Part shown: positions 651 through 63,067 of the stretch, piece after piece
How the letters are laid out: every line of letters begins with the position of its first letter
How positions within the stretch are numbered: the stretch's first letter is position 1
NCBI GenBank assembly: GCA_965221695.1
Contig: OZ244905.1
Coordinates: forward strand, 2,701,384-2,765,383
Length of the DNA stretch: 64,000 nt
Direction of reading: 5' to 3'
From: Gammaproteobacteria bacterium
Lineage (GTDB): Bacteria; Pseudomonadota; Gammaproteobacteria; Eutrophobiales; Eutrophobiaceae
Made by a program: the position numbers and the translations under genes
The notes under the pieces: model-generated
Databases searched by the model: none
What the model was told of the DNA's origin: nothing
Seen by the model: the letters and a program-made list of their open reading frames with translations, nothing else

Positions 651-679
651 AAAAATGGTTTATAATCGCCGCTGTATGC

Positions 680-870
680 AGGTTTCCACCGGGCAGGTCT
701 GCCGGGTGGATTAACGGGAAGCCTGGTGAGCTTTCACAAGTGATTCCAGCACTGCCCCCGCAACGGTGATCAGCCTTGGTCCCGGACGTTACCACTGTGC
801 ATCGCATGGGAAGGTGTTCGGGACGTTGACTGGCGACAGTCAGCGCTGTCAGTCCGGAGACCGACCTGGA
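680..870 (+). ncRNA. cobalamin (adenosylcobalamin) riboswitch in the btuB leader
   Basis: Conserved segments ttaacgggaagcctggtga, gcccccgcaacggtga and accactg...gggaagg, plus the B12 box cagtccggagaccgacc (consensus AGYCMGGAGACCKGCC). Lies between a perfect TATAAT at 661-666 and the btuB start at 995. Confidence 0.7.
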
Positions 871-994
871 TATGCCGGACCGGGACCAGCCCGCGTGACT
901 CACCATCTGGTGTGAAACACGTCTGAAGCCCGGCGCCGTTAATGACATGTTGCGGAGGGCGGCATAGGGCATTCACCTGCTCATTGTTCCCTCT

Positions 995-2925: not shown

Positions 2926-3110
2926 AGGAACCTCTGGATTAAGTCAGAGTTTCCCTAAGGAAACTCTGAACAAGTCCATCCTGGACTTGTCAGAGTACGG
3001 AAAGCAAAAATGCGATTTTTGTTTTCCTCACAAAATCAATGTCTTACAGTCATTGATATTGACGATACATCCTTGTATCGTAGGAACCTCTGACTTAATC
3101 AGAGGTTCCC
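2926..3110. repeat. MITE-like multi-hairpin element (family 2), full copy with terminal inverted hairpins
   Basis: Five consecutive perfect hairpins: ggaacctctga..tcagaggttcc; ctctgaacaagtccatcctggacttgtcagag; ggaaaacaaaaatgcgatttttgttttcc; caatatcaatg..cattgatattg; gacgataca..tgtatcgtc. Near-identical copies at 22539-22705 (reverse) and 60746-60898. Confidence 0.8.
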
Positions 3111-3211
3111 TAATATTACAAAGAGTTTTGTTGTCCACTGGATTCCTGCTGTTGCGGTAATGGTATAGATTGGCGGACAATATCAGGTTGAATAACCCAT
3201 GAGATTGAAAG

Positions 3212-3817
3212 ATGACCGACAAGACAATCAGCGCTGACGAGCACAAGCAGAAGATGCAGGAGCAGCAACGCCAGGTGCGCGCCAAGATCGCGGCGGCGAA
3301 AACAAGGCGCGGGATCATCCTCTACCTGTACGGCAACGGCAAGGGAAAAAGCAGTTCGGCATTCGGCACCCTGGCCAGAAGCATTGGTCACGGTAAAAAA
3401 GGCGCGGTGGTGCAATTCATCAAGGGTAAATGGAAGACCGGGGAGCAAGCGATTTTCAAACAACTGGGCGTGAAACACCTGGTTATGGCAACTGGGTTTA
3501 CCTGGGACACCCAGGACCGGGAGAAGGACATCGCCGCCGCGGCAGCGGTCTGGAACGACGCGCTCCCGTTGTTCCGGGACCCTGCTTACGATATTGTGGT
3601 CCTCGATGAAATAACCTACATGTTCAAGTATGGCTACCTGCCGGCAGACGCCGTCTGCGAAGTCCTGCTGGCCCGGCCGGAGAAACAGAACGTGATTATC
3701 ACCGGCAGGGACCCGATCCCGGAATTGCTGGAGATTGCCGATACCATCAGCGAGGTCAAGGAAATCCGCCATGCCTTCCACCAGGGCATCAAGGCACAGA
3801 AAGGCATAGAGTATTAA
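3212..3817 (+). CDS. cobO: cob(I)yrinic acid a,c-diamide (cob(I)alamin) adenosyltransferase
   Basis: 201-aa product with the P-loop motif LYLYGNGKGKSSSAFGTLARSIGHGKKGAVVQFIKG, typical of CobO/BtuR/CobA-type ATP:corrinoid adenosyltransferases. Confidence 0.8.
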   Translation: MTDKTISADEHKQKMQEQQRQVRAKIAAAKTRRGIILYLYGNGKGKSSSAFGTLARSIGHGKKGAVVQFIKGKWKTGEQAIFKQLGVKHLVMATGFTWDTQDREKDIAAAAAVWNDALPLFRDPAYDIVVLDEITYMFKYGYLPADAVCEVLLARPEKQNVIITGRDPIPELLEIADTISEVKEIRHAFHQGIKAQKGIEY

Positions 3818-3977
3818 AGAAGCTCTGAACAAGTCCATCCTGGACTTGCCAGAGCACGCACAACAAAAATGCGATTTTGTTGTGCTCACATATTCAATAA
3901 CTTGCAGTCATTGAATATGGCGATACATCCTTGAATCGCAAGAAGCTCTGAACAAGTCCATCCTGGACTTGACAGAG
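3818..3977. repeat. MITE-like family 2 variant copy filling the cobO/recN convergent intergenic region
   Basis: Both ends carry the ctctgaacaagtccatcctggacttg(c/a)cagag hairpin; the interior has the aaaaatgcgatttt and cattgaatatg hairpins. Confidence 0.7.
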
Positions 3978-3982
3978 ATTAC

Positions 3983-5653
3983 TTAACCGGAACCTGCGAG
4001 CATTTCCCGCGCATGATCACGGGACTGTTGCGATATCCTGATGCCGCCCAGCATGCGGGCGATTTCTTCCACCCGTTGTTCATCCGTCAGCACATCGACC
4101 CGGGTTTCAGTGGTTATACTGTCGGAGGTTTTCGTTACCCTGAAGTGGTTATCGCCCTGCGAGGCTACCTGCGGCAAATGGGTAACGCACAGTACCTGCC
4201 GGCGTTCCGCTAAGCTGTGTAACCGGTTGCCGACGATTTCCGCGATCCCGCCGGCAATTCCCGCGTCCACTTCGTCGAAAATCAACGTCGACGCGCCGCT
4301 GTCCCGGTTTGCGCTGACCTGCAGCGCAAGGCCGATGCGCGACAGTTCACCGCCGGAGGCGACTTTTCTCAGCGGTAACAACGCTTGCCCGGGATTGGTG
4401 GAAACGAGGAATTCCACCTGGTTGTTCCCGTTTCTGTGGGGTTTCAGGTCCGCACCCGGGGTGACATTGATTTGAAATCTCCCTTCAGGCATACCCAGGG
4501 TACGTATTCTGTCGCTGATGTCCGTAGCCATGTCTGCCGCGCACCGGCGCCGGCATTCACCCAGTTCATCTGCGGCCGATCGGTATTCCTCCAGCGCCCG
4601 TTGTTGTTCCTGTTCGAGTTCCGCCTGGCGCGTGCGATTGTGCTCCAGCGTACCCAGTTGCTGCGTTATCAATTGCTGGTGCGCGTAAAGCTGTTGCGGC
4701 TGTACCCGGTGTTTGCGGGCCAAATCGTGCAACTTCCCCATGCGTTGTTCCACCTCACCCAGGCGCGCAGGGTCCTGGTCCAGCTTGCCCAGGTAAGAGC
4801 GCAGTTCGTCGCTGGCCTCGGCAATGTGCAGAGACGCATTCTCCAGCAGTCCGGTTATGGTTGCCAGGGTTGAATCGAAGCGTTCCAGGTCAGCGAGATC
4901 CTTTTTGATGTGGTTGATCCTGTCGTTTGCCGACTTTTCGCCGGTATATAATCCGTCCAGGGCCTGTTGTGCCGTTTCCAGCAAGCTGTGCATGTTGACC
5001 AGACGCTTGTAATCATGTTCCAGCCGTTCCACTTCGTTCTCTTCCACTTCAAGCGCCTGCAGTTCCTCCACCTGGTACCTGAGCAGGGATAATCGTTCAC
5101 CTGCATCTCCGTCAGGTTCGGTGAGTGCACGCAAGGCCCTGTCTATTTCGTCCCAGTGTTCGTATGCCCGACTGACCCGCGCCAGGACCTCGTCATAGTC
5201 CCCGAAGCCGTCCAGCAATTCCCTTTGCGCATCTCTTTTCAACAACTTCTGGTGTTCGTGTTGCCCATGGATATCTATCAGCAGCGCGCCGATGTCGCGC
5301 AGTAACTGCAAGGGGACGGGAGTGGTATCGATATAAGCGCGCGAAGGGCCTTCCCTGTTAACCGCCCGGCGCAACAGCAATTCGTTTTCTGCGCAGGTGA
5401 TGGACTGTTCGTCCAGTAATTGCATCAGCGACTCATTTCCACCCACATCGAACAGCGCGCTGATCTCGGCGCGTGCGCACCCGGTTCGTATCACTGTGGT
5501 ATCCGCCCGGTCGCCCAGCACCAGCCCCAGGGCATCGATCAAAATGGATTTGCCGGCGCCGGTCTCGCCGGTAAGCACCGTCAGGCCCTCACAGAACGAC
5601 AGCTCGAGATTTTCAATTACCGCCAGATTGTTAATACAAAGATGTTTCAGCAT
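3983..5653 (-). CDS. recN: DNA repair protein RecN
   Basis: 556-aa product with the N-terminal Walker A motif (LTVLTGETGAGKSILIDALGLVLG), a long coiled-coil, and the C-terminal SMC-like signature and Walker B (LIFDEVDAGIAG). Confidence 0.9.
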   Translation of the reverse strand: MLKHLCINNLAVIENLELSFCEGLTVLTGETGAGKSILIDALGLVLGDRADTTVIRTGCARAEISALFDVGGNESLMQLLDEQSITCAENELLLRRAVNREGPSRAYIDTTPVPLQLLRDIGALLIDIHGQHEHQKLLKRDAQRELLDGFGDYDEVLARVSRAYEHWDEIDRALRALTEPDGDAGERLSLLRYQVEELQALEVEENEVERLEHDYKRLVNMHSLLETAQQALDGLYTGEKSANDRINHIKKDLADLERFDSTLATITGLLENASLHIAEASDELRSYLGKLDQDPARLGEVEQRMGKLHDLARKHRVQPQQLYAHQQLITQQLGTLEHNRTRQAELEQEQQRALEEYRSAADELGECRRRCAADMATDISDRIRTLGMPEGRFQINVTPGADLKPHRNGNNQVEFLVSTNPGQALLPLRKVASGGELSRIGLALQVSANRDSGASTLIFDEVDAGIAGGIAEIVGNRLHSLAERRQVLCVTHLPQVASQGDNHFRVTKTSDSITTETRVDVLTDEQRVEEIARMLGGIRISQQSRDHAREMLAGSG

Positions 5654-11693: not shown

Positions 11694-11764
11694 CCCGCAT
11701 GCTCAAAGCACTGCATGCCCGGGCAACAGCAGGAGTCCAGTCATATTACAGTGTAGTCCGGAGA

Positions 11765-11975
11765 GCTTACCCATATAGAACGTGGGGCAATCCTTTGTTT
11801 CACCGGTTGAAATAGTTGCCACAGACCAGGGCATTCTCCCGTACCACTCCCGCGAAAGCGGGAGTCCAGTAAAATACTATGTCGCCTGAAAGGCGACCCT
11901 TTGTTCCACCGGCCGGAAAAGCTGTATTCCCACCCAAGCGGGAATCCAGTAAAATAACCGTCTCAAAGAGACACC
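11765..11975. repeat. REP-like nested-palindrome element (family 1)
   Basis: Carries ccgtaccactcccgcgaaagcgggagtccagtaaaat and gtcgcctgaaaggcgac. Lies between dnaJ and dapB. Confidence 0.75.
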
Positions 11976-16281: not shown

Positions 16282-16626
16282 TCAACGGTTGATATCATGC
16301 CTGGCTTCAAACTCAGCTGTGAACTCATCAAGTGGCCGGCCTTGTTCAGACAGGGCATGTCTGATAATCCGCACGCTCTCGGCATAGTTTGCCAATACCG
16401 CTATTTTTTCGTAGGTTTCAGAATCCTGGACTACCACAGCAGCGTTGCCATTGACCGTTAGAAGCTCTGGACGTTTGCTTTTGTTCGGTCGTGTAATATG
16501 CGTCGCCGGTTTCCGGCTGAAGTCAGTGACCGATTGTTGTTCAAACGTGAGCGGAGATTTCGTGTAGGCTTCTGCCACTGGAGATCCTCGGTACGCAGGC
16601 AAAAAAAAGCCGCCAAGGTTGCGCAT
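16282..16626 (-). CDS. Phd/YefM-family antitoxin-like protein (ORF probably N-terminally over-extended; orphan)
   Basis: ..ELLTVNGNAAVVVQDSETYEKIAVLANYAESVRIIRHALSEQGRPLDEF matches the YefM core. No YoeB/ParE toxin on either side. Confidence 0.5.
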   Translation of the reverse strand: MRNLGGFFLPAYRGSPVAEAYTKSPLTFEQQSVTDFSRKPATHITRPNKSKRPELLTVNGNAAVVVQDSETYEKIAVLANYAESVRIIRHALSEQGRPLDEFTAEFEARHDINR

Positions 16627-17142
16627 TGTTAAGAGGCGTGACGGCTATGTTACTCATATTATAGTTCCTGCTGGAAACAGATTCAAGAGAGAGATAGTGT
16701 TTTCCATATTAGCGGGAGATTCTGTTAGCAACAAATTGATTTGTCCGCTTTTGTAACAAATCAATTCCTCTTTTATCTTTACACTGACACCGTCAAGATG
16801 TTAGCGGGAGCTTCTTGTAAATCCCTGATATGGTTGTTAAAGTATTTTGCATGGAAAAATTGATCGAAAGAATAAAACTAGGTCTTGAGAAAGGGCATTA
16901 TTCACGCGAAGAACAAGTATGGGGTAGTGGCGCCGAAGTGGAATTTGAAATACCTACACGCACTTAGAGTTCAACAGCCAGTTGACACAGTCGGCTAACC
17001 TGACAAAAAAGCAAACCAACCGTTATCGGTTGAAAAACTAATCTCTGGTTTAGACAGTTGTGAAACCACAATGGAGGGATCGTTGTCCGAGACCGAATGA
17101 ATCATAACGTGGAATACAAGCCGTTTGACAGCGCGTAAAGAA

Positions 17143-17781: not shown

Positions 17782-17838
17782 GATTTTGCTGATATATGCT
17801 GTGTAAATTTTACTAACTGTCCTGCACCCCGAACATTC

Positions 17839-17975
17839 CGGTACGTACAGGAATTCAGTGAAACAAAGGGTCGCCCTCCGGGCGACACAGAATTTGACTG
17901 GACTCCCGCTTTCGCGGGAGTGGTACGGGGGAATACCTTGTTCTGTGCCAACAGTTACATGTAATCGGGGTGTGC
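17839..17975. repeat. REP-like nested-palindrome element with tail (family 1)
   Basis: gggtcgccctccgggcgac centre, actcccgctttcgcgggagtggtacgg arm and the conserved tail ..ccaacagttacatgtaatcgggg. Confidence 0.75.
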
Positions 17976-18124
17976 AGAGAGCTGATCATAAGGGTTTAGA
18001 GTTTGCAAACAACGTCTCGGATGAGATGACGTAATCAGGTCATGCCTGCTGGCGGTTTCTCCACATAACCGGCAGGGTTGCGACGGCGGGCCAGTAGTTT
18101 GTCAATTTCCCAGCGGGCGGCTGG

Positions 18125-21100
18125 TTAGACATCGGTGAGGCAGGTAGTCACTCCATTCAATTGTTTTGCGACCGGCAAGCCGTTTTTGAACAATATCCTG
18201 TTGGTATGCAAGGCCGGGATGCGGTCGCCGGGCAATATCACGCCTACCAGGTTCAGCGGATCGGTGGCGGAGATGACGACTGGAGGCAGCTCCTGCGTGG
18301 CGTTTTTCTGTTTCCTCAACAAGGCAATCGCCTCCGGTCGGGCAAATTGTTCGCCGGAGCAGCCTTCGACAAAATAACCGCCACGGATCTCGCCTCGCGC
18401 CTCCATGCGCCGGCACATATACAGCAGCTCTCTCCACGGCGGTAAGTCGGGTTCGCGTTCCAGTACCTTGCGGAACAGCACACCATAACGCTTCAGCAGG
18501 GTATCGACAACCGCGCTCAGCGTGTTTTCGTCCGTGCCCGGCCAGGCGCGCTGTTCCGGGGTTTCGGGGTCTTCCGTTGAACTGACAATGGCCGACCAGC
18601 GCCCTGCGGCATCGACGCTGTTCATGCTCGACGCTCGCCGGCGTCGCCTCCCATGGCCGTAGCCGGGGCGCTTGCTCTCCGGTGTGATCAGTGCCCGGAG
18701 CCCTGCGTAGCTGTCTGAGGTGACGGCGCCGCCAGCGGCCAGTTCAGCCAGCGCCGTTTCCACCTGGGTGCGCAGTAAACCGGTCTGTTGCGCCAGGTCC
18801 ATGAAAAATGATGCGCCCTGGCGCCGCAGGGTGTCCAGGGTTTTTGCTGCTGCGGACGATAACTTCCTGCCCTGGATCGCATCCGGCAGCAGAAGTTTCT
18901 GCCACAGGTCAAGGCGTTCACGGTCCAGCAGGGTGATGGGCGTGTTCCTCAGCAATACCGCTTTGCCCGCAGACATTTCATCCGCTGCAGCCCTGTGCCT
19001 GGCAGAACGCAGGCGCGACCAGACGATGCGGCCACTACTGCACAAGCGGTCCAGGGCCGCGCTGGAGTAGTCGTTCAGGCGGGCAGGCAGGATATCCTTT
19101 TCCCACGCAGCCGCGGCAATGGCGTAACCCTCCAGTTTTTCCAGCGCCGCCAGCAGCGCGGCGTCACCCTCGGGTCGTATTTCACCCATACCGTGCCACG
19201 CAAACAGGAAACGCATATAGCCGGCGGCTGTTACCGGTTTGATTTCCTGCCGTAACGATTGAATGGTATAGCGGTGCATCCTGGCGAGCAGGCCGCGCTC
19301 GCACCACTCTGTCTCCACGGCGTCAGGGCTGTACCGGCCCTGCATCGCATAGCCCTCGTTCTGCAATGCCAGCAGGGACGCGTTAACCTCGGTGGCGCTT
19401 GCGTCAAACAGTTCAGCCAACTCGGCTTCGGTCACGGGTCCGCAGCATTCGAGCCGGGCGCGCACAAGTTCGATCAGCGCGGACTCTCTGGCAGGTCTTC
19501 CTGTACCAAGGGCTGCCTCTGGCGGCATCTCGGATAACTGGATTTTTGCTTCCGCCGTGATGGCGGCAGAGGAGCGCCGGGATGGTGGGGAGGCAGCAGT
19601 ATCGATAGAAGAAGCAGGCGCTGGGGGCAAGCCGGCAGCCGCAGTGGTTGGCCCGCCGGCATATACTGCCTGAGCCTGGGGAAGCCGTTCGGCGCAAACC
19701 CATAGGGTCTGTTTGCCGGCGCGCAGCACGGTTGCGCGTTTCTCCTCCATAAGCCGAGGCAACCAGGGGCGACCGTCTGCCAGCGCCGGGTTATCGCCGC
19801 TGCCTTCGCGTGCACTCATCACGCCGGTAAGCATCAGCGCATCATGCAGTTCATCTGCGTCACGGAATGCCGGCCAGGCTTCACTGCGTACCTGGGCGAT
19901 GGCTTCCGGACTCAAGCGGGCAAGGTTTGCGGCGTCGGCCGGGTCCAGGAAGCGCCTGGCAATGACCGCGTTGGTGCGGCGTTCTTCCGCCGGCGCATCA
20001 TCCAGGAATGCATACGGCCGGGCGTTCAGGATTTCCTGTGCCAGCGGAGAGGGCCCGCCCAGGTCGCGGCAATGGAAGCGGATCCGGCCGTTCTCGTATG
20101 CCCGAAGAATTTCTTCCAGTCCGGCAATGTCCATCAGGTCGTTCAGGCAGTCGTTGACGGTCTGTTCTACCAGCGGATGCCGTGGTATTTCCCTTTCTCC
20201 GATGAGATTGTCCTGGCAGGCCAGTTGGTCGGGGAAGACCACCGCCATCAGGTCCTCGGCATCGCTGCGCTGGAACTGTGCGGGCACTTTCTGCCCGCCG
20301 CTGTTGCGCCTGACGGCCAGGGCCGTGGTGGCATTCCAGCGCCAGTGTGTGGGGAACATCGGCGTCGCCAGCAGCGCCTGGGTGACCGCGTCCCTGACGC
20401 TCGCGGAATTAAGGTAGCGGGTCACATCCTCCAGGGGAAAGCTGTGGATCGCGCCCAGGGATATGACAATGCTGTCGTCCAGGGCTGCGGCCTGCAACTC
20501 AAAATTGAACTGCCGGCAGAAGCGCTTGCGCAGGCCCAGGCCCCAGGCGCGGTTGATGCGGGAGCCGTAAGGGCTGTGCAGCACCAGGTGCTGGTCTCCT
20601 GCCTCGTCAAAAAAGCGCTCGAACACGACATCCTGCCGGGTCGGGACGCGTCCCAGGGCGGCGCGCGCGCCGGCCAGGTGATCGGTCAACTGGCGTGCAG
20701 CCGCCTCGTTCAGATTTAATTCGCCAACCAGCCAGTGATATGCGGTATCCCCGCCCTGCGCCAGTTTTTCATCCATGACGCTGCGCAGGCGTGAGACCGC
20801 ACGACTCAGTTCATCGGACCGGCCCGGCGCCTCGCCGAACCAGAACGGAATGTTCGGAGGCTGGCCTTGTGCGTCCGCAACCCGCACTTTGCTCTGTTCG
20901 ACCTTGAGGATGCGATACGAGGTATTGCCCAGTTGGAAGATGTCGCCAGGCAGGCTCTCGAATGCAAAATCTTCGTTCAATGTCCCGATAAAATGGCCCT
21001 CCGGTTCCAACACCACATCGTAATCGAACTGGTCCGGTATCACCCCGCCGTTGGTAACGGCAGTCAGCCTCGCGCTCTTCCTGGGCCGGATGCGCTTGTT

Positions 21101-22516
21101 GACGCTGTCATGGTGGATGTACCGGCTGCGCCGGCCGCGGCGCGTGGAAAACCCCTGCGCCAGCATGCCCAATACCTCCGTGAATTTCTGCCGCGTCAGT
21201 TCCCGGTACGGGTAAGCGTGCGTCACTTGCCGGAACAATTCATCTTCCTGCAACTCCGCGCAGGCAGCCTCCGCGACCAGGTGCTGCGCGAGCACATCCA
21301 GGTGGCCCTCAGGTATGGCGAGCCGGTCCAGCTCGTCACGCCGCGCCGCGTCCAGCAACGCCGCGCATTCCACCAGGTCATCCCGGCTCAGCGGGAACAG
21401 TCGTCCCTTTGGAGTCGCACCCAGGTGGTGGCCGGAACGTCCAACCCGTTGCAGGAACACGGCAATGGATCGGGGCGAGCCAAGCTGGCACACCAGGTCC
21501 ACATCTCCGATGTCGATGCCCAGTTCCAGCGATGCAGTCGCGACCAGCGCCTTGAGTTCTCCCCGTTTCAGCCGTTGTTCCGCATTCAGGCGATGTTCTT
21601 TTGCCAGGCTGCCGTGATGGGCGGTCACATTTTCTTCACCTACCCGTTCCGCCAGCGCGCGCGCGGCCCGTTCGGCCAGGCGGCGGGTATTGACGAAGAT
21701 CAGCGTGGTCCTGTGCTGCCCAATCAGGTCAGCCAGCCGAGCGTACAATTCCAGCCATACCTCGCCGGCCATCACGGCTTCCAAGGGTGAGTCGGTAAGC
21801 GCCAGCGCGATGTCCATACGCCTGGCATGGCCGCGATCCAGGATGTTGCACTGTTGCTCCCGGTTACCGATCAGGAACCGGGCAATCTCTTCTATCGGCC
21901 GTTGAGTCGCAGACAGGCCGATACGCGCGAACGGGCGTCCGGTGAGCGCCTCCAGCCGTTCCAGTGAAAGCGCCAGGTGCGCCCCCCGTTTGTTTGGCGC
22001 CAGGGCATGAATCTCGTCAATGATCACGTTGCGCACGGTTTGCAGCATATTTCTACCGGAACTGCTGGTGAGCAGGATATAAAGGGATTCCGGGGTGGTG
22101 ACCAGGATATGGGGTGGCGTGCGCCGCATACGCTCGCGCGCTGCCTGCGTGGTATCACCGGTTCGCACCAGGGCGCGGATGTCCGCCGTCGCCAAGCCCT
22201 GTGCCTGCATCCTGTCGCGGATGCCTTGCAGCGGTCCCTGCAGGTTCTTCTGTATATCGTTGGACAAGGCCTTCAGAGGAGAGACATACAGGATATACGT
22301 CTCATCAGCAAGCCGGCCGGCCACAGCTTCCCGCACCAGGTCGTCAATGGCCGCGAGGAACGCGGCCAAGGTCTTGCCGCTACCGGTCGGGGCGGCAATC
22401 AGGGCATGTTTGCCCTGTTTTATCGCAGGCCAGGCGTCCTCCTGTACCGGCGTCGGTCCGGCAAATTCACTGTTAAACCAGGACGCGGTCACCGGGTGAA
22501 AAATATCGGTTGACAT
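18125..22516 (-). CDS. lhr: Lhr-like large ATP-dependent (DEAD/DEAH-box) helicase
   Basis: 1463-aa product with an N-terminal superfamily-2 helicase core (LIAAPTGSGKTLAAFL; DEIH; QRVGRSGH) followed by a long Lhr-type C-terminal extension. Confidence 0.85.
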   Translation of the reverse strand: MSTDIFHPVTASWFNSEFAGPTPVQEDAWPAIKQGKHALIAAPTGSGKTLAAFLAAIDDLVREAVAGRLADETYILYVSPLKALSNDIQKNLQGPLQGIRDRMQAQGLATADIRALVRTGDTTQAARERMRRTPPHILVTTPESLYILLTSSSGRNMLQTVRNVIIDEIHALAPNKRGAHLALSLERLEALTGRPFARIGLSATQRPIEEIARFLIGNREQQCNILDRGHARRMDIALALTDSPLEAVMAGEVWLELYARLADLIGQHRTTLIFVNTRRLAERAARALAERVGEENVTAHHGSLAKEHRLNAEQRLKRGELKALVATASLELGIDIGDVDLVCQLGSPRSIAVFLQRVGRSGHHLGATPKGRLFPLSRDDLVECAALLDAARRDELDRLAIPEGHLDVLAQHLVAEAACAELQEDELFRQVTHAYPYRELTRQKFTEVLGMLAQGFSTRRGRRSRYIHHDSVNKRIRPRKSARLTAVTNGGVIPDQFDYDVVLEPEGHFIGTLNEDFAFESLPGDIFQLGNTSYRILKVEQSKVRVADAQGQPPNIPFWFGEAPGRSDELSRAVSRLRSVMDEKLAQGGDTAYHWLVGELNLNEAAARQLTDHLAGARAALGRVPTRQDVVFERFFDEAGDQHLVLHSPYGSRINRAWGLGLRKRFCRQFNFELQAAALDDSIVISLGAIHSFPLEDVTRYLNSASVRDAVTQALLATPMFPTHWRWNATTALAVRRNSGGQKVPAQFQRSDAEDLMAVVFPDQLACQDNLIGEREIPRHPLVEQTVNDCLNDLMDIAGLEEILRAYENGRIRFHCRDLGGPSPLAQEILNARPYAFLDDAPAEERRTNAVIARRFLDPADAANLARLSPEAIAQVRSEAWPAFRDADELHDALMLTGVMSAREGSGDNPALADGRPWLPRLMEEKRATVLRAGKQTLWVCAERLPQAQAVYAGGPTTAAAGLPPAPASSIDTAASPPSRRSSAAITAEAKIQLSEMPPEAALGTGRPARESALIELVRARLECCGPVTEAELAELFDASATEVNASLLALQNEGYAMQGRYSPDAVETEWCERGLLARMHRYTIQSLRQEIKPVTAAGYMRFLFAWHGMGEIRPEGDAALLAALEKLEGYAIAAAAWEKDILPARLNDYSSAALDRLCSSGRIVWSRLRSARHRAAADEMSAGKAVLLRNTPITLLDRERLDLWQKLLLPDAIQGRKLSSAAAKTLDTLRRQGASFFMDLAQQTGLLRTQVETALAELAAGGAVTSDSYAGLRALITPESKRPGYGHGRRRRRASSMNSVDAAGRWSAIVSSTEDPETPEQRAWPGTDENTLSAVVDTLLKRYGVLFRKVLEREPDLPPWRELLYMCRRMEARGEIRGGYFVEGCSGEQFARPEAIALLRKQKNATQELPPVVISATDPLNLVGVILPGDRIPALHTNRILFKNGLPVAKQLNGVTTCLTDV

Positions 22517-22538: not shown

Positions 22539-22705
22539 TTAAGGAACCTCTGATTAAGTCAGAGGTTCCTACGATACAAGGATGTATCGTCAATATCAAT
22601 GACTGTAAGGCATTGATATTGTGAGGAAAACAAAAATCGCATTTTTGTTTTCCGTACTCTGACAAGTCCTGGATGGACTTGTTCAGAGTTTTCTTAAGTT
22701 CCAGG
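22539..22705. repeat. MITE-like multi-hairpin element (family 2), reverse orientation
   Basis: Reverse complement of the 2926-3110 and 60746-60898 copies. Lies directly upstream of the lhr start. Confidence 0.8.
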
Positions 22706-23244: not shown

Positions 23245-23276
23245 GAGAACCTCTGAGATTAAGTCAGAGGTTCCTG
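23245..23276. terminator. solo family-2 hairpin acting as a putative bidirectional terminator between convergent genes
   Basis: gagaacctctgagattaagtcagaggttcctg, with a perfect 10-bp stem. It starts 1 nt after the GFA stop and contains the stop codon of the minus-strand MocA-like gene. Confidence 0.4.
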
Positions 23277-23866
23277 AGCTTCTCCAGGTCGGCGGGCACA
23301 TCAAGGTCAAATTCGGCTTCGGCAAGAGGGAGTGTGCTGACCCGGTCGGCGTTGTTTTTCAGCATTAATTTTGCCCCAGTATCGCCTTTCAGCGCCAGCA
23401 ATTGCGGGTAAAACTCTGCGGGAATGATGGCCGGTGTGCCGATGACGCCGGCGTAGCGGGCGGCTGCTATATCGGACGGGCTGGCAAGCCAAAGGTTGAG
23501 CAGGCTGTTCAGGTGCTGCTGAGTAACCAGCGCCTGGTCGCACAAGGTAATCATCACGGCCGGACAGTCCGGCTCAAGACTGCGCACTCCTGCTTGAACA
23601 GAGGATGCCAGCCCCTGGCGCCAATCCTTGTTGAGCGCTATGTTGACTCCCAGGTCGTCGACAGCTTGTGCGACGGCCTCCGAGTTGGCGCCGACGACCA
23701 CATTGATCCGGCCGGGCGCGAACAGCGCCAGGAGCTTGTTCACGGCAAGCCGCACCAGGCTGGAACCCTTTATTTCAACCAGTTGTTTACACTGGCCGTA
23801 CCTGCTTGAACCTCCCGCCGCCAGAACTACCGCGGCCGCATTTTGCTCCAGGTTTGACGTCTTCAC
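23264..23866 (-). CDS. MobA-like NTP-transferase domain protein (MocA/molybdenum-cofactor cytidylyltransferase-like)
   Basis: N-terminal AAVVLAAGGSSRYGQCKQL glycine-rich nucleotidyltransferase motif. Confidence 0.55.
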   Translation of the reverse strand: MKTSNLEQNAAAVVLAAGGSSRYGQCKQLVEIKGSSLVRLAVNKLLALFAPGRINVVVGANSEAVAQAVDDLGVNIALNKDWRQGLASSVQAGVRSLEPDCPAVMITLCDQALVTQQHLNSLLNLWLASPSDIAAARYAGVIGTPAIIPAEFYPQLLALKGDTGAKLMLKNNADRVSTLPLAEAEFDLDVPADLEKLRNL

Positions 23867-24034: not shown

Positions 24035-24170
24035 CAGTATAGCACAGGCCAAGGTATTGCCCCGTACCACTCCCGCAACAGCGGGAGTCCAGTCAAATAA
24101 GTGTCGCCCGCAGGGCGACTCATCTGTTTACTGGATTCCCGTTTTCACGGGAATGGTACGGAGCGCACGT
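24035..24170. repeat. REP-like nested-palindrome element (family 1), reverse orientation
   Basis: Tail ggccaaggtattgcccc precedes ccgtaccactcccgcaacagcgggagtccagtcaaat, gtcgcccgcagggcgac and ggattcccgttttcacgggaatggtacgg. Confidence 0.75.
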
Positions 24171-29251: not shown

Positions 29252-29866
29252 ATGTCTAAAAGTTCCAAACGCTGGCTGCAGGAACATAACCGGGATAGGT
29301 ACGTTAACCTGGCCCGGAGCCGGCGACTGCGTTCTCGCGCGGTGTTCAAACTTGAGGAGTTGGACCGGCGTCACAGACTGTTCCGCCCGGGACAGACGGT
29401 GCTTGACCTGGGCGCGGCGCCGGGTAGCTGGTCAGCCTACGTGGCTGAAAAGGTTAGGCCCGACGGCAAAGTCATCGCGGTCGACTTGCTGGCGATGCGG
29501 CCTATTGCCGATGTGATCTTCCTGCAAGCTGACCTGAGCAATGCAGCCAACCTGCAGAATTGTATCGCCCGGCTGAGCGAATACCGCGTTGACCTTGTAA
29601 TTTCTGATATGGCCCCCAATTTATCAGGCATAGCTGCCGCGGATCAGGCCAACAGTCTGAAACTGGCGGAAACCGCTCTCCGAATAGCCTGTTCGGCGCT
29701 GCGCGGTAACGGGCATTTTCTGGTCAAGCTGTTTCAAGGAGCTGACAGCGACGCATTCAGAAAGCAATTGACGGAGAAATTTGCTAAAGTATCAGTGAGC
29801 AAGCCGAAGGCGTCGAGGACGAACTCCAGTGAGGTATACATCCTGGCAAAAGGTTATGAGGTTTAA
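29252..29866 (+). CDS. rlmE: 23S rRNA (uridine2552-2'-O)-methyltransferase RlmE (FtsJ)
   Basis: SSKRWLQEHNRDRYV..RSRAVFKLEELD..VLDLGAAPGSWS SAM-binding motif. Confidence 0.9.
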   Translation: MSKSSKRWLQEHNRDRYVNLARSRRLRSRAVFKLEELDRRHRLFRPGQTVLDLGAAPGSWSAYVAEKVRPDGKVIAVDLLAMRPIADVIFLQADLSNAANLQNCIARLSEYRVDLVISDMAPNLSGIAAADQANSLKLAETALRIACSALRGNGHFLVKLFQGADSDAFRKQLTEKFAKVSVSKPKASRTNSSEVYILAKGYEV

Positions 29867-36166: not shown

Positions 36167-36260
36167 TTCCGCAGCTTTGCCAACCGTTCTATGCGGTTGC
36201 CCTGCGCAGCGATGCAGGGATAATGTGCTGTACCGCATAATCAGCTACAATAACCAGCCC

Positions 36261-36347
36261 GGAGAGGTGCCAGAGTGGTTGAATGGGGCAGACTCGAAAT
36301 CTGTTGTACGCGTCAGCGTACCGTGGGTTCGAATCCCACCCTCTCCG
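36261..36347 (+). tRNA. tRNA-Ser (anticodon CGA)
   Basis: Folds by eye into a cloverleaf: acceptor ggagagg/cctctcc, 3-bp D stem, anticodon loop ctCGAaa, long variable arm gtacgcgtcagcgtac and T-arm cgtgggttcgaatcccac. CCA is not encoded. Confidence 0.85.
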
Positions 36348-36701
36348 TAACATTCATGCCACAGGCGCATCTGGCGCCTGTGGCATGAATGTTGATGCAA
36401 TGGGGTTCGAACCCACGGTAATTAAATACGGGTTCGACAAATTCGCTGGGAGCGAATTTGAACAGCGTAGCTGGCCCCGGAGGGGCAAACTACATGGATG
36501 TAGTTTGTAATCCCACCCTCTCCGTAACATTCATGGCACAGGCGCTTCTGTCGCCTGTGCCATGAATGTTGATGCAATGGGGTTCGAACCCACGGTAATT
36601 AAATACGGGTTCGACAAATTCGCTGGGAGCGAATTTGAACAGCGTAGCTGGCCCCGGAGGGGCAAACTACATGGATGTAGTTTGTAATCCCACCCTCTCC
36701 G
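36348..36701 (+). repeat. two tandem 177-bp direct repeats, each ending in a 17-nt copy of the tRNA-Ser 3' end (att-like)
   Basis: Units 36348-36524 and 36525-36701 each contain a perfect 13-14 bp stem hairpin (catgccacaggcgc..gcgcctgtggcatg vs catggcacaggcg..cgcctgtgccatg, with compensatory gcc<->ggc changes), a gggttcgaaccc palindrome and a terminal aatcccaccctctccg. Confidence 0.85.
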
Positions 36702-41368: not shown

Positions 41369-43104
41369 CAGCAATACGAGCATTGATGTTGTGTGCGCTT
41401 CTGGTGTACCTGCCGGCAGGCAACAGCCAGACGACCGGTGATGACGCAGAAGCGCCGGCTGTTTCCTCTGCCACTGCACCCGCTGTGCCTGCTGATACGC
41501 CCGTGACAACGGAGGACCCAGCGCAAATAGCCGCCCCCTCAGCGGATACAGCCACGGCGATTGCCGCGGTTGTGCAGGTTCCCGAACCCGTAGATTTCAG
41601 TGCGGTGCGGCCCCACCTGGTGGTCATAAGAGAAGGGATGGACGCCGCCGCACGTCGCACGCCGGGATTCAGCATCAGCGACCAGGGCCATATCCTGACT
41701 TATTCCGGAGAATTACGCGCCCGGGAGTACTACCTTGTCTCGGTTGCAGGCGGTCAGGTCTTTACTGCTGCGCTGCTTGATGAAGATGAAGACACCGGCC
41801 TCATGCTACTGAGGATCGCAGGAGAAGGGCACGGCCTCACCGCCCTGAAGTTTGCCAGAACGACGCTGGAAGCCGCGGTGCCGCTCTATGCAGTACGGTT
41901 CGACCCGGTGCGGGCGGAGCCGTTCGTGCCCGTTCCCGGCACGGTCACGCGGTTGCCTGCAACGGATGAGGAGACACCGGCAATCGTGCATAATGCCCTG
42001 TTCAATACGGCGGCCGCCGGGACGCCCTTGTTCAACCGTTGTTACCAGGCGGTCGGTGTCAGCGTGCTGCAAAGGAAGGGCTTCCCGCCGAGAACTCTCG
42101 ATCCCCAACAACAGGGTAGCGCCATCTCCCTGGCGGCCTACTCGTTGAGCGTGATCCTGGCGTCGGCCAACCTGACCCTGCCCATCGCTGAGGCGGAGTG
42201 CCAGAGTGCGGAGGAGGAGGCGCGACTGCGGCTGGAACAACTTCAGCAGGAAAAAGAGGCGGAGCGGGCAAATGCCGAAGCCCTGGCCCTTGCCGCCGCG
42301 GAGGAAGCGCTGCGCAGGGAGGCGGTAATGAACCTGGAGCGGGAAGCAGCGCAACAGCAGCTTGAACAGGCGCGCCAAGAGAAAGAAGCGGCCCTGCAGG
42401 CGGAGCGGGCAAGTGCCGAAGCCGATAAGCGCCGTTTGGAAGAAGAAGCGCAGCAACAACTTGAACAGGCGCAGCAGGAGAAGGAACAGGCCCTGCAGGC
42501 ACAACAGCAGGAGAATGAACAGGCTCTGCAGGTGGAGCGGCAGGAGACCGAACAGGCCCGGCGGGAAGCCCGGCAGGCGACGCATACGGGGAAACAGATC
42601 CTGCTGTTATCGCTAGCGGTCGTCTTCGTCCTGGCGCTGGTCTTCTTCCTGGTCCTGCGCGCCAGGCGTAAACACCTGCAACGCGTGGAACAGGAAAAAC
42701 AGCAGTTCGCCCAGGACCTGGACAGGGCAGAGGCAGACCTGTCAGACGCCTCCGAGAGGGAGCAGCTACGCGCCGGCGCCCCCGACGTGTTTATCGAGGG
42801 TGTCACGCCGCAGAACGAGCGCATCGCCCTGAAAATACCCGGCGCCTCACTGGTCAAACCCTCAGGTGTCACGGTAGGCAGGAGTCCCTCCGAATCCGAG
42901 TTCGTCATCAATCACGAACAGGTCTCCCGCCGCCATTTCCGCCTCATGCTGGTGTCTGGGCAGGTGATGATCGAAGATATGGGCTCGACCAATGGGACCG
43001 TCGTGAACGGCGTGCCCCTCAGTCCCGGCGCCCGGCAGACGCTGGGCGACGGCAGCCGCATGCAGGTCGGGCGCGTGACGATGACGGTGCGGATAGGTCT
43101 CTGA
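41365..43104 (+). CDS. bitopic membrane protein: signal peptide - degenerate trypsin-like (pseudo-protease) periplasmic domain - long coiled-coil - TM - cytoplasmic C-terminal FHA domain
   Basis: Periplasmic part resembles the S1 fold (GHILTYSG..; DTGLMLLRI; AAAGTPLFN in place of GNSGGPL), with the catalytic His and Ser replaced. EQARQEKEAALQAERASAEADKRRLEEEAQQQLEQAQQEKEQALQ heptad region, TM ILLLSLAVVFVLALVFFLVL, then FHA (VGRSPSESEFVINHEQVSRRHFRL..GSTNGTVVNG). Confidence 0.6.
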   Translation: MTAIRALMLCALLVYLPAGNSQTTGDDAEAPAVSSATAPAVPADTPVTTEDPAQIAAPSADTATAIAAVVQVPEPVDFSAVRPHLVVIREGMDAAARRTPGFSISDQGHILTYSGELRAREYYLVSVAGGQVFTAALLDEDEDTGLMLLRIAGEGHGLTALKFARTTLEAAVPLYAVRFDPVRAEPFVPVPGTVTRLPATDEETPAIVHNALFNTAAAGTPLFNRCYQAVGVSVLQRKGFPPRTLDPQQQGSAISLAAYSLSVILASANLTLPIAEAECQSAEEEARLRLEQLQQEKEAERANAEALALAAAEEALRREAVMNLEREAAQQQLEQARQEKEAALQAERASAEADKRRLEEEAQQQLEQAQQEKEQALQAQQQENEQALQVERQETEQARREARQATHTGKQILLLSLAVVFVLALVFFLVLRARRKHLQRVEQEKQQFAQDLDRAEADLSDASEREQLRAGAPDVFIEGVTPQNERIALKIPGASLVKPSGVTVGRSPSESEFVINHEQVSRRHFRLMLVSGQVMIEDMGSTNGTVVNGVPLSPGARQTLGDGSRMQVGRVTMTVRIGL

Positions 43105-47463: not shown

Positions 47464-49089
47464 TCACCGCATCGATTTTTGCAGTACCGAGAAGTTTCTT
47501 ACCCAAGGCTCTAGTTTGCGTATTTCATCGGGCAAATCATCTATAGCTCTTTCGGCAAGCTCATAGTCATGGTACAGACCATAAAACACGCGATAGTAAG
47601 TTATCTGCTCGATCTCGATCCTGATATAGGCAATCTGCTGTGTCAGGTTATTCTGTTTGAGGAAATTTAGCACACGTTCTTCACTGGAAAAGCTGGCCAG
47701 TTGCAAAGTGTAGTGATACGGAGATTGTGCGGCGACCCAGTCTTCCCGCCTGATAGCGGTCTCACCGGCGTCAGAGGCATCCTCGCCAGCCAACTCATCT
47801 TCATCGGAAATGACCTCGCTGGTGGTCGCAACCAGATCGGAAATGGCCTCTGGTACAGCCGCAATGTATTCCGCTGTCGCTGGTACAGGGCTGGTGTCCG
47901 CGGTCTCTGCAACAGTCTCCGGCGTTTCCTCCTCCGCGGCGTTCAGCGCGATCTCGGCGGTGTCCTCATCCGTCTGAGCAGCTACGATGGTCGGCGTTTC
48001 TTCGACAGCAGGCGCTGTGTCTTCTGCTTCAGTTGCCTCAGCAGCAGTTTGAGCAAGGCTGGTCTCCGCGGTCTCTGCAACGATCTCCGGCGCTTCCTTC
48101 TCCGCATCGAACAGTGCGGTCTCGGCTGTGTCTTCGTCCGACTGAGCGGCTATGGTCGGCGCTTCCTCCTGCGTGACGCTCAGTGCGGTCTCGGCAGCGT
48201 CCTCATCCGGCTGAGCAGCTATAATCGGTGTTTCCTCGACGGCAGGTACCGTATCTTCTTCAGTTGCCTGCGCAAAGGGTTCTGTTGTTTCCTGCATTGC
48301 AGGCGCTTGCGATACGGTCGTGTCCTCTTCAATATCGACATAAGCAAGTCTTTGTAAGCTTTCTTCTGCCTGTTGCAGACCCCCGGCGGCCGCGCGTTGA
48401 TACCATTTTTTCGCCTCCACCAGGTCCTTTTCTACCGCGTAACCATTTTCATAGTACACGCCCATGTTGAATTGCGCCTGTGGGACATCGGCGTCAGCGG
48501 CTTTTCTGAACCAGAGTAGCGCTACATCATAGTCCTGGTCGACGCTGTAACCGAAGGCGTACATGACAGCCAGGCTGTATTGCGCATTTCCGTTTCCCTG
48601 CTCTGCTGCTTGGCGGAAAAGCCGGGTGGCTGTTTCATAATCCCGGGTAATCTGCTCACTGCCGTTGAAGTACAAAAGGCCAAGGTTGAACAGCGCATCC
48701 GATTGCCCGGCCGCCGCGGCCAGCTTCCACCATTGCATGACTTTAGACGGGTCTTTTGTGACACCATCACCGTGCAAGTACTTGACGCCGAGCTCGAATT
48801 GGGCGTCGGGGTGCCCTTGATCCGCCGCAAGCAAGTACCATTTTACTGCTTCGGCAGAATCTGCGTTAACGCCATGGCCATAGTCATACATGAGGCCAAG
48901 CATTCTTTGCGCATCCGAGTTGCCGTCCTCAGCCAGTGGTTGCAGTATTTCGTAGGCTTTTTCGTAGTCTTTGGCCAGGTAGGCCTGTCTCGCCGTTTCA
49001 AAAGATTGCGCCAGCACAGGGCCGGAAAATACCAACCCCAATAACAGGAAAGGAATTAACTTGGTCAGCATAAACCGTATCTTTGACAT
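47464..49089 (-). CDS. secreted Sel1-repeat (SLR) protein with acidic tandem-repeat linker and C-terminal SPOR (septal peptidoglycan-binding) domain
   Basis: Signal peptide, then >=6 Sel1-like repeats (A..W..AA.QG...AQ..LG.MY..G.GV..D), a D/E/T/A-rich repetitive region and a C-terminal SPOR-like fold (YTLQLASFSSEERVLNFLKQNNL...YYRVFYGLYHDYELAERA). Confidence 0.65.
   Translation of the reverse strand: MSKIRFMLTKLIPFLLLGLVFSGPVLAQSFETARQAYLAKDYEKAYEILQPLAEDGNSDAQRMLGLMYDYGHGVNADSAEAVKWYLLAADQGHPDAQFELGVKYLHGDGVTKDPSKVMQWWKLAAAAGQSDALFNLGLLYFNGSEQITRDYETATRLFRQAAEQGNGNAQYSLAVMYAFGYSVDQDYDVALLWFRKAADADVPQAQFNMGVYYENGYAVEKDLVEAKKWYQRAAAGGLQQAEESLQRLAYVDIEEDTTVSQAPAMQETTEPFAQATEEDTVPAVEETPIIAAQPDEDAAETALSVTQEEAPTIAAQSDEDTAETALFDAEKEAPEIVAETAETSLAQTAAEATEAEDTAPAVEETPTIVAAQTDEDTAEIALNAAEEETPETVAETADTSPVPATAEYIAAVPEAISDLVATTSEVISDEDELAGEDASDAGETAIRREDWVAAQSPYHYTLQLASFSSEERVLNFLKQNNLTQQIAYIRIEIEQITYYRVFYGLYHDYELAERAIDDLPDEIRKLEPWVRNFSVLQKSMR
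47890..48280. repeat. intragenic imperfect tandem DNA repeats (~170-215 bp units with sub-repeats) encoding the acidic linker of the Sel1-SPOR protein
   Basis: Recurring gcggtctcggc(a/t)g(c/t)gtcctcatccg(g/t)ctgagcagcta..atggtcggcg(c/t)ttc blocks. Translated repeats are DEDTAETAL..EAPEIVAETAETS. Confidence 0.6.
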
Positions 49090-50520: not shown

Positions 50521-50676
50521 AGCGTCGGGTTTCCTTTAATTCAGGTAGGGACGGTTTTACGCGCTCTGACAAGTCCAGGATGGACGTGTTCAGAGTTTCC
50601 CAAAATCATAAAATGTTGACATAGATTACAAAAACACGGCATTATCTGCTTACTATTTTATGGGGGTGTTATAAAA

Positions 50677-56997: not shown

Positions 56998-57001
56998 TAC
57001 C

Positions 57002-58126
57002 ATGCAGATAACAGATGTGCGCCTGCGCCGTTTACGGGTCATCGAGGAAGTGGGGACGGTGCAACTGGCCTGGAGTCCGGGCGATCAGATGCTGATCCAA
57101 AAAGGGGGCGGCGGTTTTGTTGAAGTTCTGACTGATGAAGGTATTGCCGGAATTGGTCCGGAGGTGGATGACCGCTTCATCCCGGTGTTGAAGAAGATAC
57201 TCATCGGCAGGGACCCCATGGAAGTGGAAAAGCTCAGCGCGATGCTGGAGTATTACCTTCAGGCAGGGACCCATTACCAACATGTGGCCGGAGTGGATAT
57301 CGCGCTGTGGGATATCGTGGGCAAGGCCAGGGGCTTGCCCCTGTATAAACTATGGGGCGGAAGTAAGGATCGTATTGTGCCCTATGCCGCAATGATCATG
57401 TTGTCCACGCCTGAGGAAAGGGCGGATATGGCGCGCCGGCTCAGGGATCAGGGCTGGCAGGCAATAAAGCTGCGTCTGCACCATGAGACCATGGCGGAAG
57501 ATATCCGCACGGTGGCCAAGGTCAGGGACGCAGTGGGCAGCGATATGCGCATCATGGTGGATGCCAACCAGGCACAATCCAAGGGTGACTGGCAACCGGG
57601 GGTGAGATGGGACTACCGGCGCGCGTACGACACCGCGCTGGAATTGCAACAGCTTGACTGCGTATGGCTGGAGGAGCCCAGGCCGCGCTATGCATTCGAG
57701 GAGCTGGCCAGGCTGAATGATTCGGTGGAGATAGACCTGGCAGGCGGTGAAAATGCCGCTGTCCTTTACGAGTTTCAACAGATGTGCGAACTGGGCGCCT
57801 ACAGCATATTGCAACCGGAATGCCTGGTATTGACCGGGATCACCGAAACCCTGAAGGTGGGGGAGATTGCAAAAAAATACGGCAAACAGGTTGCCCCCCA
57901 TAACGGCTACGTGAAACTCGGGTTGATCGCCCATATGCACATGGTGGCAAGCTGGCCGCACGCACCGTACCTGGAGCTGATCCACGACCCACCCGTCGGC
58001 GATTACCGCAATTTTTTTGCGTTGATGGATAATCCACCCCTGGTTGATGAACACGGGTGCATGACCGTACCGTCAGCGCCCGGCCTCGGCGTGGATATAG
58101 CCCCGGACCTGATCATCCCTGACTGA
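57002..58126 (+). CDS. mandelate racemase/muconate lactonizing enzyme-family protein (enolase superfamily)
   Basis: VDIALWDIVGKARGLPLYKLWGG and barrel-domain metal ligands. Second MR/MLE paralogue in the island. Confidence 0.75.
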   Translation: MQITDVRLRRLRVIEEVGTVQLAWSPGDQMLIQKGGGGFVEVLTDEGIAGIGPEVDDRFIPVLKKILIGRDPMEVEKLSAMLEYYLQAGTHYQHVAGVDIALWDIVGKARGLPLYKLWGGSKDRIVPYAAMIMLSTPEERADMARRLRDQGWQAIKLRLHHETMAEDIRTVAKVRDAVGSDMRIMVDANQAQSKGDWQPGVRWDYRRAYDTALELQQLDCVWLEEPRPRYAFEELARLNDSVEIDLAGGENAAVLYEFQQMCELGAYSILQPECLVLTGITETLKVGEIAKKYGKQVAPHNGYVKLGLIAHMHMVASWPHAPYLELIHDPPVGDYRNFFALMDNPPLVDEHGCMTVPSAPGLGVDIAPDLIIPD

Positions 58127-58277
58127 GCAACCCCTGTCCTGATCGCCGGTCGTGATCCCAAACAAGGGGACCTCTGATTAAGTCTCAGAGTTTCCCAAGA
58201 TATCTATTCAGGGACCCTGTTCAACAATTTGTGTTACTCTGCGGTGAAATAAAAGCGAATAACATCGGGAGAACCCT

Positions 58278-59387: not shown

Positions 59388-59433
59388 GTTAGTCCCTTTT
59401 CCTTTTAATTCTGATTATGTTCAGAGCAAAGCC

Positions 59434-60898: not shown

Positions 60899-60917
60899 TT
60901 AGTTTTGGAGACAACTT

Positions 60918-61778: not shown

Positions 61779-61790
61779 CCGGAGTTTCTT

Positions 61791-62969: not shown

Positions 62970-63067
62970 CGGAGGTCAGCAGGCAAAGACCCAGGGCAGG
63001 CCGGCAGCAATCCGGAAACAGCGAACCGCCGGTTGAACCTCAGAAGCCCCCTGGTCCGGTCTCGCTT

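Follow-up and report, generated by a model that had tools for sequence, protein, structure and literature searches.

A probable IS5-group MITE family of five consecutive hairpins at gene ends in uncultured Gammaproteobacteria

The 64-kb stretch of DNA analyzed here (64,000 nt; the window) carries copies of a short palindromic repeat next to btuB, cobO, recN, lhr and other long open reading frames. The repeat family had been predicted from the sequence, and a blastn-short census of the window confirms it: all copies listed in the original prediction are present at, or a few bases from, the positions given there. Three 151-bp copies are mutually 97-99% identical over 150 bp (BLAST E 1e-74 to 1e-86), and the window contains nine elements in total—three full copies, one diverged 165-bp variant and five short or decayed derivatives. 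The 19-nt end of the element occurs seven times in the window at ≤3 mismatches, against 0.01 occurrences expected, and the G+C content of the element is 40% compared with 57% for the window. Each full copy is made of five consecutive hairpins, labelled B, C, D, E and A in order. The features are:

2927-2954, minus strand: solo foldback (mini-element) of 28 bp, an 11-nt IS5-type left end, loop and right end, reading GGAAACTCTGACTTAATCCAGAGGTTCC on the minus strand; perfect duplication CTAA (2923-2926 / 2955-2958)
2959-3109, plus strand: full MITE copy of 151 bp, hairpins B-C-D-E-A; duplication CTAA (2955-2958 / 3110-3113)
3818-3982, plus strand: diverged subfamily copy of 165 bp with a long B-type foldback at each end; duplication TTAA (3814-3817 / 3983-3986)
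22543-22693, minus strand: full copy of 151 bp; duplication TTAA (22539-22542 / 22694-22697)
23246-23274, no strand assigned: A-type solo foldback of 29 bp; flanks TAAG and TGAG (3/4 match)
29867 to about 29940, plus strand: decayed remnant, a B-like foldback and degenerate interior; end match with 3 mismatches
50554-50600, minus strand: 5' fragment that spans the left end, all of hairpin B and the beginning of hairpin C, lacking the right end
58167-58195, minus strand: solo foldback of 29 bp, also present in locus L071; perfect duplication CAAG (58163-58166 / 58196-58199)
60748-60898, plus strand: full copy of 151 bp; duplication TTAG (60744-60747 / 60899-60902)

The interval 2926-3110 had been taken for one full copy; the repeat is indeed there, but the interval resolves into a 28-bp solo foldback and a 151-bp copy that have one CTAA in common. 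The full copies at 2959-3109 and 22543-22693 display 97.4% and 98.7% identity, respectively, to the copy at 60748-60898. In the 165-bp variant, the left TTAA carries the cobO stop (TAA, 3815-3817) and the right TTAA carries the stop of the convergent recN ORF (3983-3985, minus strand). The left TTAG of the copy at 60748-60898 includes the TAG stop of ORF 59434-60747, and the next ORF starts 19 nt past its right end; the same insertion is found in L071 (CBDCSC010000001.1). The remnant at 29867 begins 1 nt past the stop of ORF 29252-29866. The copy at 22543-22693 is placed between the start of a long minus-strand ORF (18125-22516, lhr) and a plus-strand GFA-type ORF, the TAA stop of which directly adjoins the solo foldback at 23246-23274. 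This foldback also holds the stop of a convergent gene, as had been noted, with ORF 23264-23866 (minus strand) ending inside it.

Additional copies elsewhere, on which the original prediction depended, are found both in the same species and in sister genomes. Among the matches listed, copies of the five-hairpin MITE abound in a single lineage of uncultured MAGs labelled 'Gammaproteobacteria bacterium', comprising six genomes (CBDCSC01, OZ252091.1, OZ000552.1, OZ242169.1, OZ220696.1 and CBDCTH01). Loci sampled from these six genomes contain more than 40 further copies; for the species representative, the count in its sampled loci runs to dozens. A search for hairpin C in viral contigs gave no match. 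Positions 56244-64000 of the window align with L071 (CBDCSC01) at 98.6% identity, both elements of that stretch included, which assigns the window to the species of CBDCSC01. Identity to the window copy is mostly 95-99% for copies in CBDCSC01, 87-91% for older copies and 80-93% for copies in sister genomes; these graded values indicate a recent amplification atop older subfamilies.

A metagenome search with the CobO protein of the window recovered two relatives (L087 and L088) in which CobO is 87% identical at the protein level and the btuB-cobO-recN region is syntenic and 75-85% identical at the DNA level. Neither contains a copy of the element, and both sites flanking cobO are empty, although at 75-85% identity the junctions are not base-exact. 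The btuB-cobO spacer measures 20-70 nt in the two relatives versus 349 nt in the window, and the cobO-recN spacer 6-27 nt versus 165 nt. An all-against-all comparison of the host-lineage loci for base-exact empty sites added a single syntenic pair, L075 and L055, whose 74% identity is too low for exact junctions. In L055 a solo hairpin flanked by a TAAG duplication precedes a start codon by 13 nt, and L075 lacks it at the orthologous place. In the rlmE-ftsH intergenic region the window has the remnant at 29867 and L027 has a full copy; the two regions align poorly, and the orientations of the elements are apparently opposite.

The element runs from GGAAACTCTGAACAAGTCC to TCAGAGGTTCC. Its ends form inverted repeats, in which the left end GGAAACTCTGA (ACAAGTCC) and the right end TCAGAGGTTCC are complementary at 10 of 11 positions. 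The right end of the main subfamily has only 11 nt in common with the left end, and the match is 18-19 nt long for the variant subfamily and the 42-bp forms. In hairpin B the left end pairs with its own inverted copy inside the element, and hairpin A is built from the right end in the same manner.

The flanks, proposed earlier as a place to look for target-site duplications, do contain them: a 4-bp duplication is perfect at 20 of 27 full copies from the six genomes and at eight solo forms. All four of the 151- and 165-bp copies in the window are bracketed by a 4-bp direct repeat. The duplications are mostly TTAA, TTAG or CTAA, and YTAR is the duplication motif of IS5 (PMC10359306). Among the matches listed, YTAR precedes the 19-mer in 17 of the 34 copies from the host lineage and in 35 of the 52 from other taxa, compared with a background of 0.27% per position, and most of the remaining tetranucleotides are one base off the motif (TTAT, TTTA, TAAG, CTAT). 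Duplications outside YTAR also occur (TTAT, TTTA, TAAG, CAAA and CAAG).

The chain of five hairpins described in the original prediction is reproduced by folding, with five local hairpins predicted at z of about -12 relative to shuffled sequences. The RNA fold of a full copy has a minimum free energy of -73.9 kcal/mol, whereas shuffles reach -27.9 ± 3.8 (z = -12.3); the variant at 3818-3982, folded as DNA, gives z = -12.2. The stems are stable on both strands (-73.9 and -78.1 kcal/mol). We aligned 24 copies from the six genomes and counted the pairs of the five-hairpin structure. Standard pairs occupy 96.2% of the cells in this alignment. Two-sided changes are found at 13 pairs versus 4.8 ± 1.4 in shuffles, none of which reaches 13 in 500 trials, and controls with the partners slid by 1-3 columns show 0-5 two-sided pairs. 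Helices C, D, E and A all contribute: GGAAAAC/GTTTTCC changes to GCAAACT/AGTTTGC or GCACAAC/GTTGTGC, AATATC/GATATT to AAAATC/GATTTT or AAATTC/GAATTT, and GGAACC/GGTTCC to GGAACA/TGTTCC inside one genome. Stems C and D of the variant at 3818-3982 likewise carry compensatory changes relative to the main subfamily.

The excess of compensatory pairs (13 against 4.8) suggests that pairing is constrained, or else restored by a templated mechanism within palindromes, and the covariation points to a constraint on this MITE that goes beyond its ends. Mismatches in the stems are strand-symmetric (11 G.T versus 18 A.C), which argues against an RNA working in one orientation only. Upkeep of the stems possibly serves end synapsis or bending of a very short element, the presentation of duplex ends on single-stranded or cruciform DNA, or tolerance of the element when it is co-transcribed; templated repair within palindromes is a further possible cause.

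The center of the element contains an exact match to the IHF consensus (WATCAANNNNTTR) in 16 of the 24 aligned copies, at position 73-76 of 151. Three of the four consensus matches in the window fall inside the three full copies, whereas 1.25 matches are expected in the window as a whole. The match is lost in all diverged subfamilies. This predicted site in hairpin D (TATCAATGCCTTA) is a candidate only, and is best treated as a lead. A second palindromic unit (CCCGTATCAAG...GGGACAGGC) is present inside hairpin loops of the MITE in OZ252091.1.

A scan of 185,579 species genomes with the 19-mer GGAAACTCTGAACAAGTCC returned at least 86 loci. In other taxa among the matches listed—Betaproteobacteria, Rhodanobacteraceae, Sulfurifustaceae, Acidobacteriaceae, Dehalococcoidia and others—the start codon of a transposase lies about 70 nt downstream of the 19-mer. 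In four loci, L016 (CTAG), L081 (TTAG), L053 (CTAA) and L070 (CTAG), the exact 19-mer bounds a complete element, 1175-1214 bp in length and flanked by a perfect 4-bp duplication. An intact 317-aa ORF (L070:309-1262) matches DDE_Tnp_1 (93.9 bits) and DUF772 (62.3 bits), scores 335.5 bits with the NCBIfam model of IS5 family transposases (NF033581, cut-off 140), and shares 55-64% identity with plasmid-borne ISPre1-, IS1384- and IS5-like transposases. Other MITE families with the same 19-nt end are also observed, one of 110 nt in Methylobacter and Methyloglobulus and one of 94 nt in Dehalococcoidia.

For E. coli IS5, a 125-nt end was checked against annotated records: matches with identities reaching 100% are found in 1,529 E. 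coli genomes, at features labelled 'IS5-like element IS5 family transposase'. The copy in NZ_CP023826.1 reads CTAA-GGAAGGTGCGAACAAGTCC...GCACCTTCC-CTAA, with the same kind of 4-bp duplication as the MITE, and the ends of the two are identical at 15 of 19 bases. Literature searches for the end brought up nothing beyond unrelated primers and p53 sites. The search for an autonomous partner, suggested in the original prediction, gave a divided result: full-length elements with matching ends exist in other taxa, but tblastn detects no IS5-type transposase gene in either the window or the roughly 0.3 Mb of loci sampled from the host lineage. No similarity is detectable between the interior of the element (hairpins C-E) and the full-length IS copies that were sampled. 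We infer trans-mobilization by an IS5-group DDE transposase in this host lineage.

Judged from these sequence comparisons, the family very probably consists of MITEs that originate from the IS5 group (IS5 family) and are mobilized by an IS5-type DDE transposase. The MITE reading had been put forward before, and it is strongly supported by the terminal inverted repeats, the 4-bp duplications and the autonomous IS5-family elements with an identical 19-nt end. Further support comes from the empty orthologous sites and from the many more copies in the same species and five sister MAGs.

According to the original prediction, each copy begins 0-40 bp from a stop codon. We counted stop codons around 38 elements with defined boundaries (76 ends). 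The tendency stands, with 30 of the 76 ends located ≤40 nt from the stop of an open frame of at least 100 codons, but it does not extend to every copy: the one at 22543-22693 sits in a divergent promoter/intergenic region, some 26 nt upstream of where the long lhr ORF (minus strand) starts, and the first copy of the original prediction (2926-3110) lies 72-104 nt past the stop of the btuB ORF. At 10 of the 38 elements the last 3 nt of the duplication are themselves the stop of an open frame of at least 200 codons. The location at gene ends follows from the target, because every YTAR tetranucleotide includes TAA or TAG, on both strands. YTAR density in the window is 2.0 per kb in long ORFs versus 8.2 per kb outside them. 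The gene-end position is thus explained more simply by the YTAR target than by a terminator role.

A DDE transposase would recognize the ends GGAA(A/C)CTCTGA (ACAAGTCC) and make a staggered 4-bp cut at YTAR-like targets (TTAA, TTAG, CTAA, CTAG), where the 151-bp element would be inserted with duplication of the 4 bp. With YTAR sites concentrated outside genes in a genome of 57% G+C, surviving insertions would accumulate at gene ends. Insertion would often fall exactly on a stop codon, which the duplication would regenerate. Since the duplication rebuilds the stop, such insertions would leave the protein unchanged and presumably survive because they do no harm. A preferred target that includes a stop, coupled with a duplication that rebuilds it, would be enough to tile gene ends, with no need for a terminator role.

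The short copies form a graded series. Searching for pairs of left and right ends less than 125 nt apart, we obtained the following derivatives:

83 bp: hairpins B, E and A (L013, L062)
67 bp: hairpins B and A (L003)
42 bp: hairpin B with both complete ends (L018, L022, L028)
27-29 bp: 11-nt left end, loop and right end (2927 and 58167 in the window; L034:4125, L055:7558, L075:286, L079:508)

At eight independent loci a 27-42-bp form is flanked by a perfect 4-bp duplication, and every deletion junction coincides with a short direct repeat of the full element (CTCTGA/TCAGAG, GGAA or TAC). With junctions at direct repeats and both ends kept, the 'solo hairpins' are, on the evidence of their sequences, internal-deletion derivatives that retain both ends and the duplication. 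Slippage between the short direct repeats (CTCTGA/TCAGAG, GGAA, TAC) would produce the 83-, 67-, 42- and 27-29-bp forms.

A further proposition is that the foldback is a selected trait: the terminal hairpins would rebuild duplex transposase-binding ends on single-stranded or cruciform DNA, and the 27-42-bp solo forms would be independently mobile. Compensatory changes in all five stems and strand-symmetric mismatches fit a constraint at the DNA level. In-situ deletion of full copies, however, accounts for the solo forms equally well as independent mobility, and we consider the proposition distinctly unlikely. If true, it would place the mobile 27-42-bp solos among the smallest transposable units known, moved by an IS5-type DDE enzyme.

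Other readings assign the hairpins a function in the host. Added to the MITE origin, such a function would consist in co-option of the hairpins as a bidirectional terminator, as the original prediction supposed, or as a REP-like 3'-end barrier stabilizing mRNAs, and would explain their persistence at gene ends. In its favor, the stems fold very stably whichever strand is read (-73.9 and -78.1 kcal/mol), compensatory changes between subfamilies keep them intact, and 30 of 76 ends lie ≤40 nt from a long-frame stop; transcripts of Correia/NEMIS MITEs regulate adjacent mRNAs (PMC2229807), and terminator-like MITEs such as SPRITE are known (PMC10969869). An intrinsic terminator would combine a G+C-rich stem with a T/U run, but no such site is present inside 2926-3110 or 3818-3982: no T run follows any hairpin, a terminator scan finds nothing inside the elements, and stems C and D are A+T-rich. 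YTAR targeting already predicts the gene-end position, copies are also placed directly upstream of start codons (22543-22693, L055:7558), and relatives lack the element at the same sites. The terminator proposal is accordingly not upheld, and we regard a host function of either kind as unlikely. The original prediction also offered a family of structured small RNAs, for which the copies would be the genes. The strong predicted structure agrees with this, and MITE-derived sRNAs are found in Coxiella (PMC10969869). No family in Rfam 15, however, matches at the gathering threshold, and the only matches at E < 1 are at chance level: TD-1 (26 bits versus 64.5) and Chloroflexus-1 (18 bits versus 181.5). 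Promoter-like sites do not exceed chance, and the elements contain no terminator-like site. Stem mismatches are not biased to one strand (G.T 11 versus A.C 18), and the copies occur in both orientations with transposon ends and target duplications. All this leaves the small-RNA reading very improbable.

Short palindromes strung together make up the body of the element, and single palindromes are also found, as in BIMEs, so that the copies might be taken for REP/BIME-like mosaics of independent palindromes spread by a RAYT (IS200/IS605-like Y1) transposase. Units C, D and E, however, are never found alone in the window, the solo forms are explained as internal deletions at direct repeats that keep both ends, and the elements have defined inverted ends identical to IS5-group ends together with 4-bp target duplications. 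REP/RAYT transposition is not known to generate such duplications, and we give this reading very little credence. The remaining alternative concerns coding. In young copies one frame runs open across all 151 bp (ETLNKSILDLSEYGKQKCDFCFPHNINALQ...), which invites its interpretation (..LSEYGKQKCDFCFPHNINAL..) as a real small protein gene; the original prediction had instead called such frames spurious and liable to mislead annotation, naming purifying selection on the frame as the contrary outcome. The frame is not conserved, while the stems stay paired: in-frame stops appear in 3818-3982, L027, L045, L055, L012 and L034, further copies are frameshifted by indels, and yet base pairing stands at 96% throughout. 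Moreover, the frame has neither its own start nor its own stop inside the element. It is a by-product that decays in diverged copies, and a protein-coding role is hardly credible. Gene callers would nonetheless emit spurious small proteins and extend real ones, and the element should be masked. The REP/BIME mosaic, the sRNA gene, the intrinsic terminator and the small protein gene were all rejected on the grounds set out above.

MITEs are typically A+T-rich and intergenic with folded transcripts, and sometimes contain IHF sites or spurious ORFs (PMC10969869; PMC2229807). The IS5 group (E. coli IS5, ISPre1, IS1384) is among the closest comparisons for the MITE described here. The MITE end (GGAAnnTnnGAACAAGTCC) agrees with that of E. 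coli IS5 at 15 of 19 bases, the 4-bp duplication with its YTAR preference is shared, and full-length elements with the MITE end encode a DDE_Tnp_1/DUF772 transposase (NF033581). By contrast, the window elements are 151 bp long without a transposase, their interior is dissimilar to the sampled IS copies, and their five hairpins are absent from the autonomous elements. The occurrence of an identical 19-nt end across Gammaproteobacteria, Betaproteobacteria, Acidobacteriota, Dehalococcoidia and others, among the matches listed, provides material for IS5 biochemistry, and the graded derivatives of 151, 83, 67, 42 and 27 bp define minimal end requirements.

MITEPgRS/BrickBuilt of P. gingivalis and ATR of Neisseria (PMC4596501) are likewise non-autonomous, multi-copy and mostly intergenic, with ends matching the IS5 family. 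They belong to other IS5 subgroups, with ends GAGAC.. and other duplications, and none of them is described as having five local hairpins in a chain and foldback ends. Correia/NEMIS elements of Neisseria resemble the window elements in size (about 150 bp), A+T richness, abundance, proximity to genes and strongly folded transcripts, and their 155-bp form has a central IHF site (PMC2229807); they differ in having 24-26-bp ends, a TA duplication and one long end-to-end stem. REP/BIME of enterobacteria are also strings of short extragenic palindromes at gene ends, with coexisting solo and composite forms, but they are linked to RAYT and lack transposon-type inverted ends and target duplication, both of which the window elements have. 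Tourist MITEs and PIF-Harbinger transposons (PMC4482050), eukaryotic relatives of IS5, share IS5-related DDE mobilization and a short A/T-rich target (TAA/TTA), whereas their 3-bp duplication, eukaryotic hosts and unrelated sequences distinguish them. MITEs with IS5-family ends are thus already known, and what is new is this family, whose hosts are uncultured Gammaproteobacteria of one lineage. It is set somewhat apart by the chain of five local hairpins in place of one end-to-end stem, the foldback ends, the clean deletion series down to 27 bp and the frequency of insertions precisely at stop codons.

The 19-nt IS5-type end of the main MITE is not confined to that element. Among the matches listed from a 19-mer scan of 185,579 species genomes (L-handles denote loci in other genomes), the identical end is also used by unrelated MITE families of 110 nt and 94 nt:

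L005, L021, L032, L036, L040, L057, L066: Methylobacter, Methyloglobulus, Methylococcaceae and a betaproteobacterial MAG
L056, L073, L074: Dehalococcoidia

These families likewise carry 4-bp duplications. The identity of the end, together with the duplications, indicates that one transposase-recognition end spawned different MITEs in different phyla.

The window contains another repeat family (351-651, 11719-11956, 17827-17985 and 24043-24099), built around CCACTCCCGCGAAAGCGGGAGTCCAGT hairpins and lacking the IS5-type end. It is probably the 'first' MITE-like family of the original prediction. Two of the matches listed, L019 and L058, both from one other MAG, have similar CCCGCGAAAGCGGGA hairpins and also carry the IS5-type end.

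Several further features were located in the window:

663-883, plus strand: cobalamin riboswitch (86.7 bits), upstream of a btuB-like ORF at 995-2854
16608-16645, minus strand: abiF RNA match at 40.2 bits, against a gathering score of 37
36260-36348: tRNA-Ser(CGA)
42257-42577 and 47886-48230: in-frame-looking CAG/GAA-rich repeats of 33 nt and 99/141 nt, plus a 108-nt repeat family (three copies)

The CAG/GAA-rich repeats are consistent with a coding repeat of the coiled-coil type. Within 36260-36701, a 177-nt tandem repeat (2.1 copies, 97% identical) comes after the 3' end of the tRNA, and every unit opens with a copy of the final ~25 nt of the tRNA. Possible readings of this arrangement are a duplicated attachment site and a scar left at an integration site.

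In two sister genomes of the host lineage, OZ252091.1 and CBDCTH01, many copies of the main MITE host a second small unit of nested palindromes, (T)CCCGTATCAA(A/G)..GTAC..GGGACAGGC, 24-70 nt in length and in some cases arranged in tandem:

OZ252091.1: L001, L015, L022, L029, L043 (for example, from position 4235, minus strand), L051, L069, L076
CBDCTH01: L047

Its insertion points are the loop of hairpin B, after GTCCAT, and the loop of hairpin C, after AAAAATGCGA. The 64-kb window has no copy of it. In L077, from a betaproteobacterial MAG, a similar unit lies within an unrelated MITE with the IS5-type end. The unit has the appearance of a REP-like element whose targets are hairpin loops.
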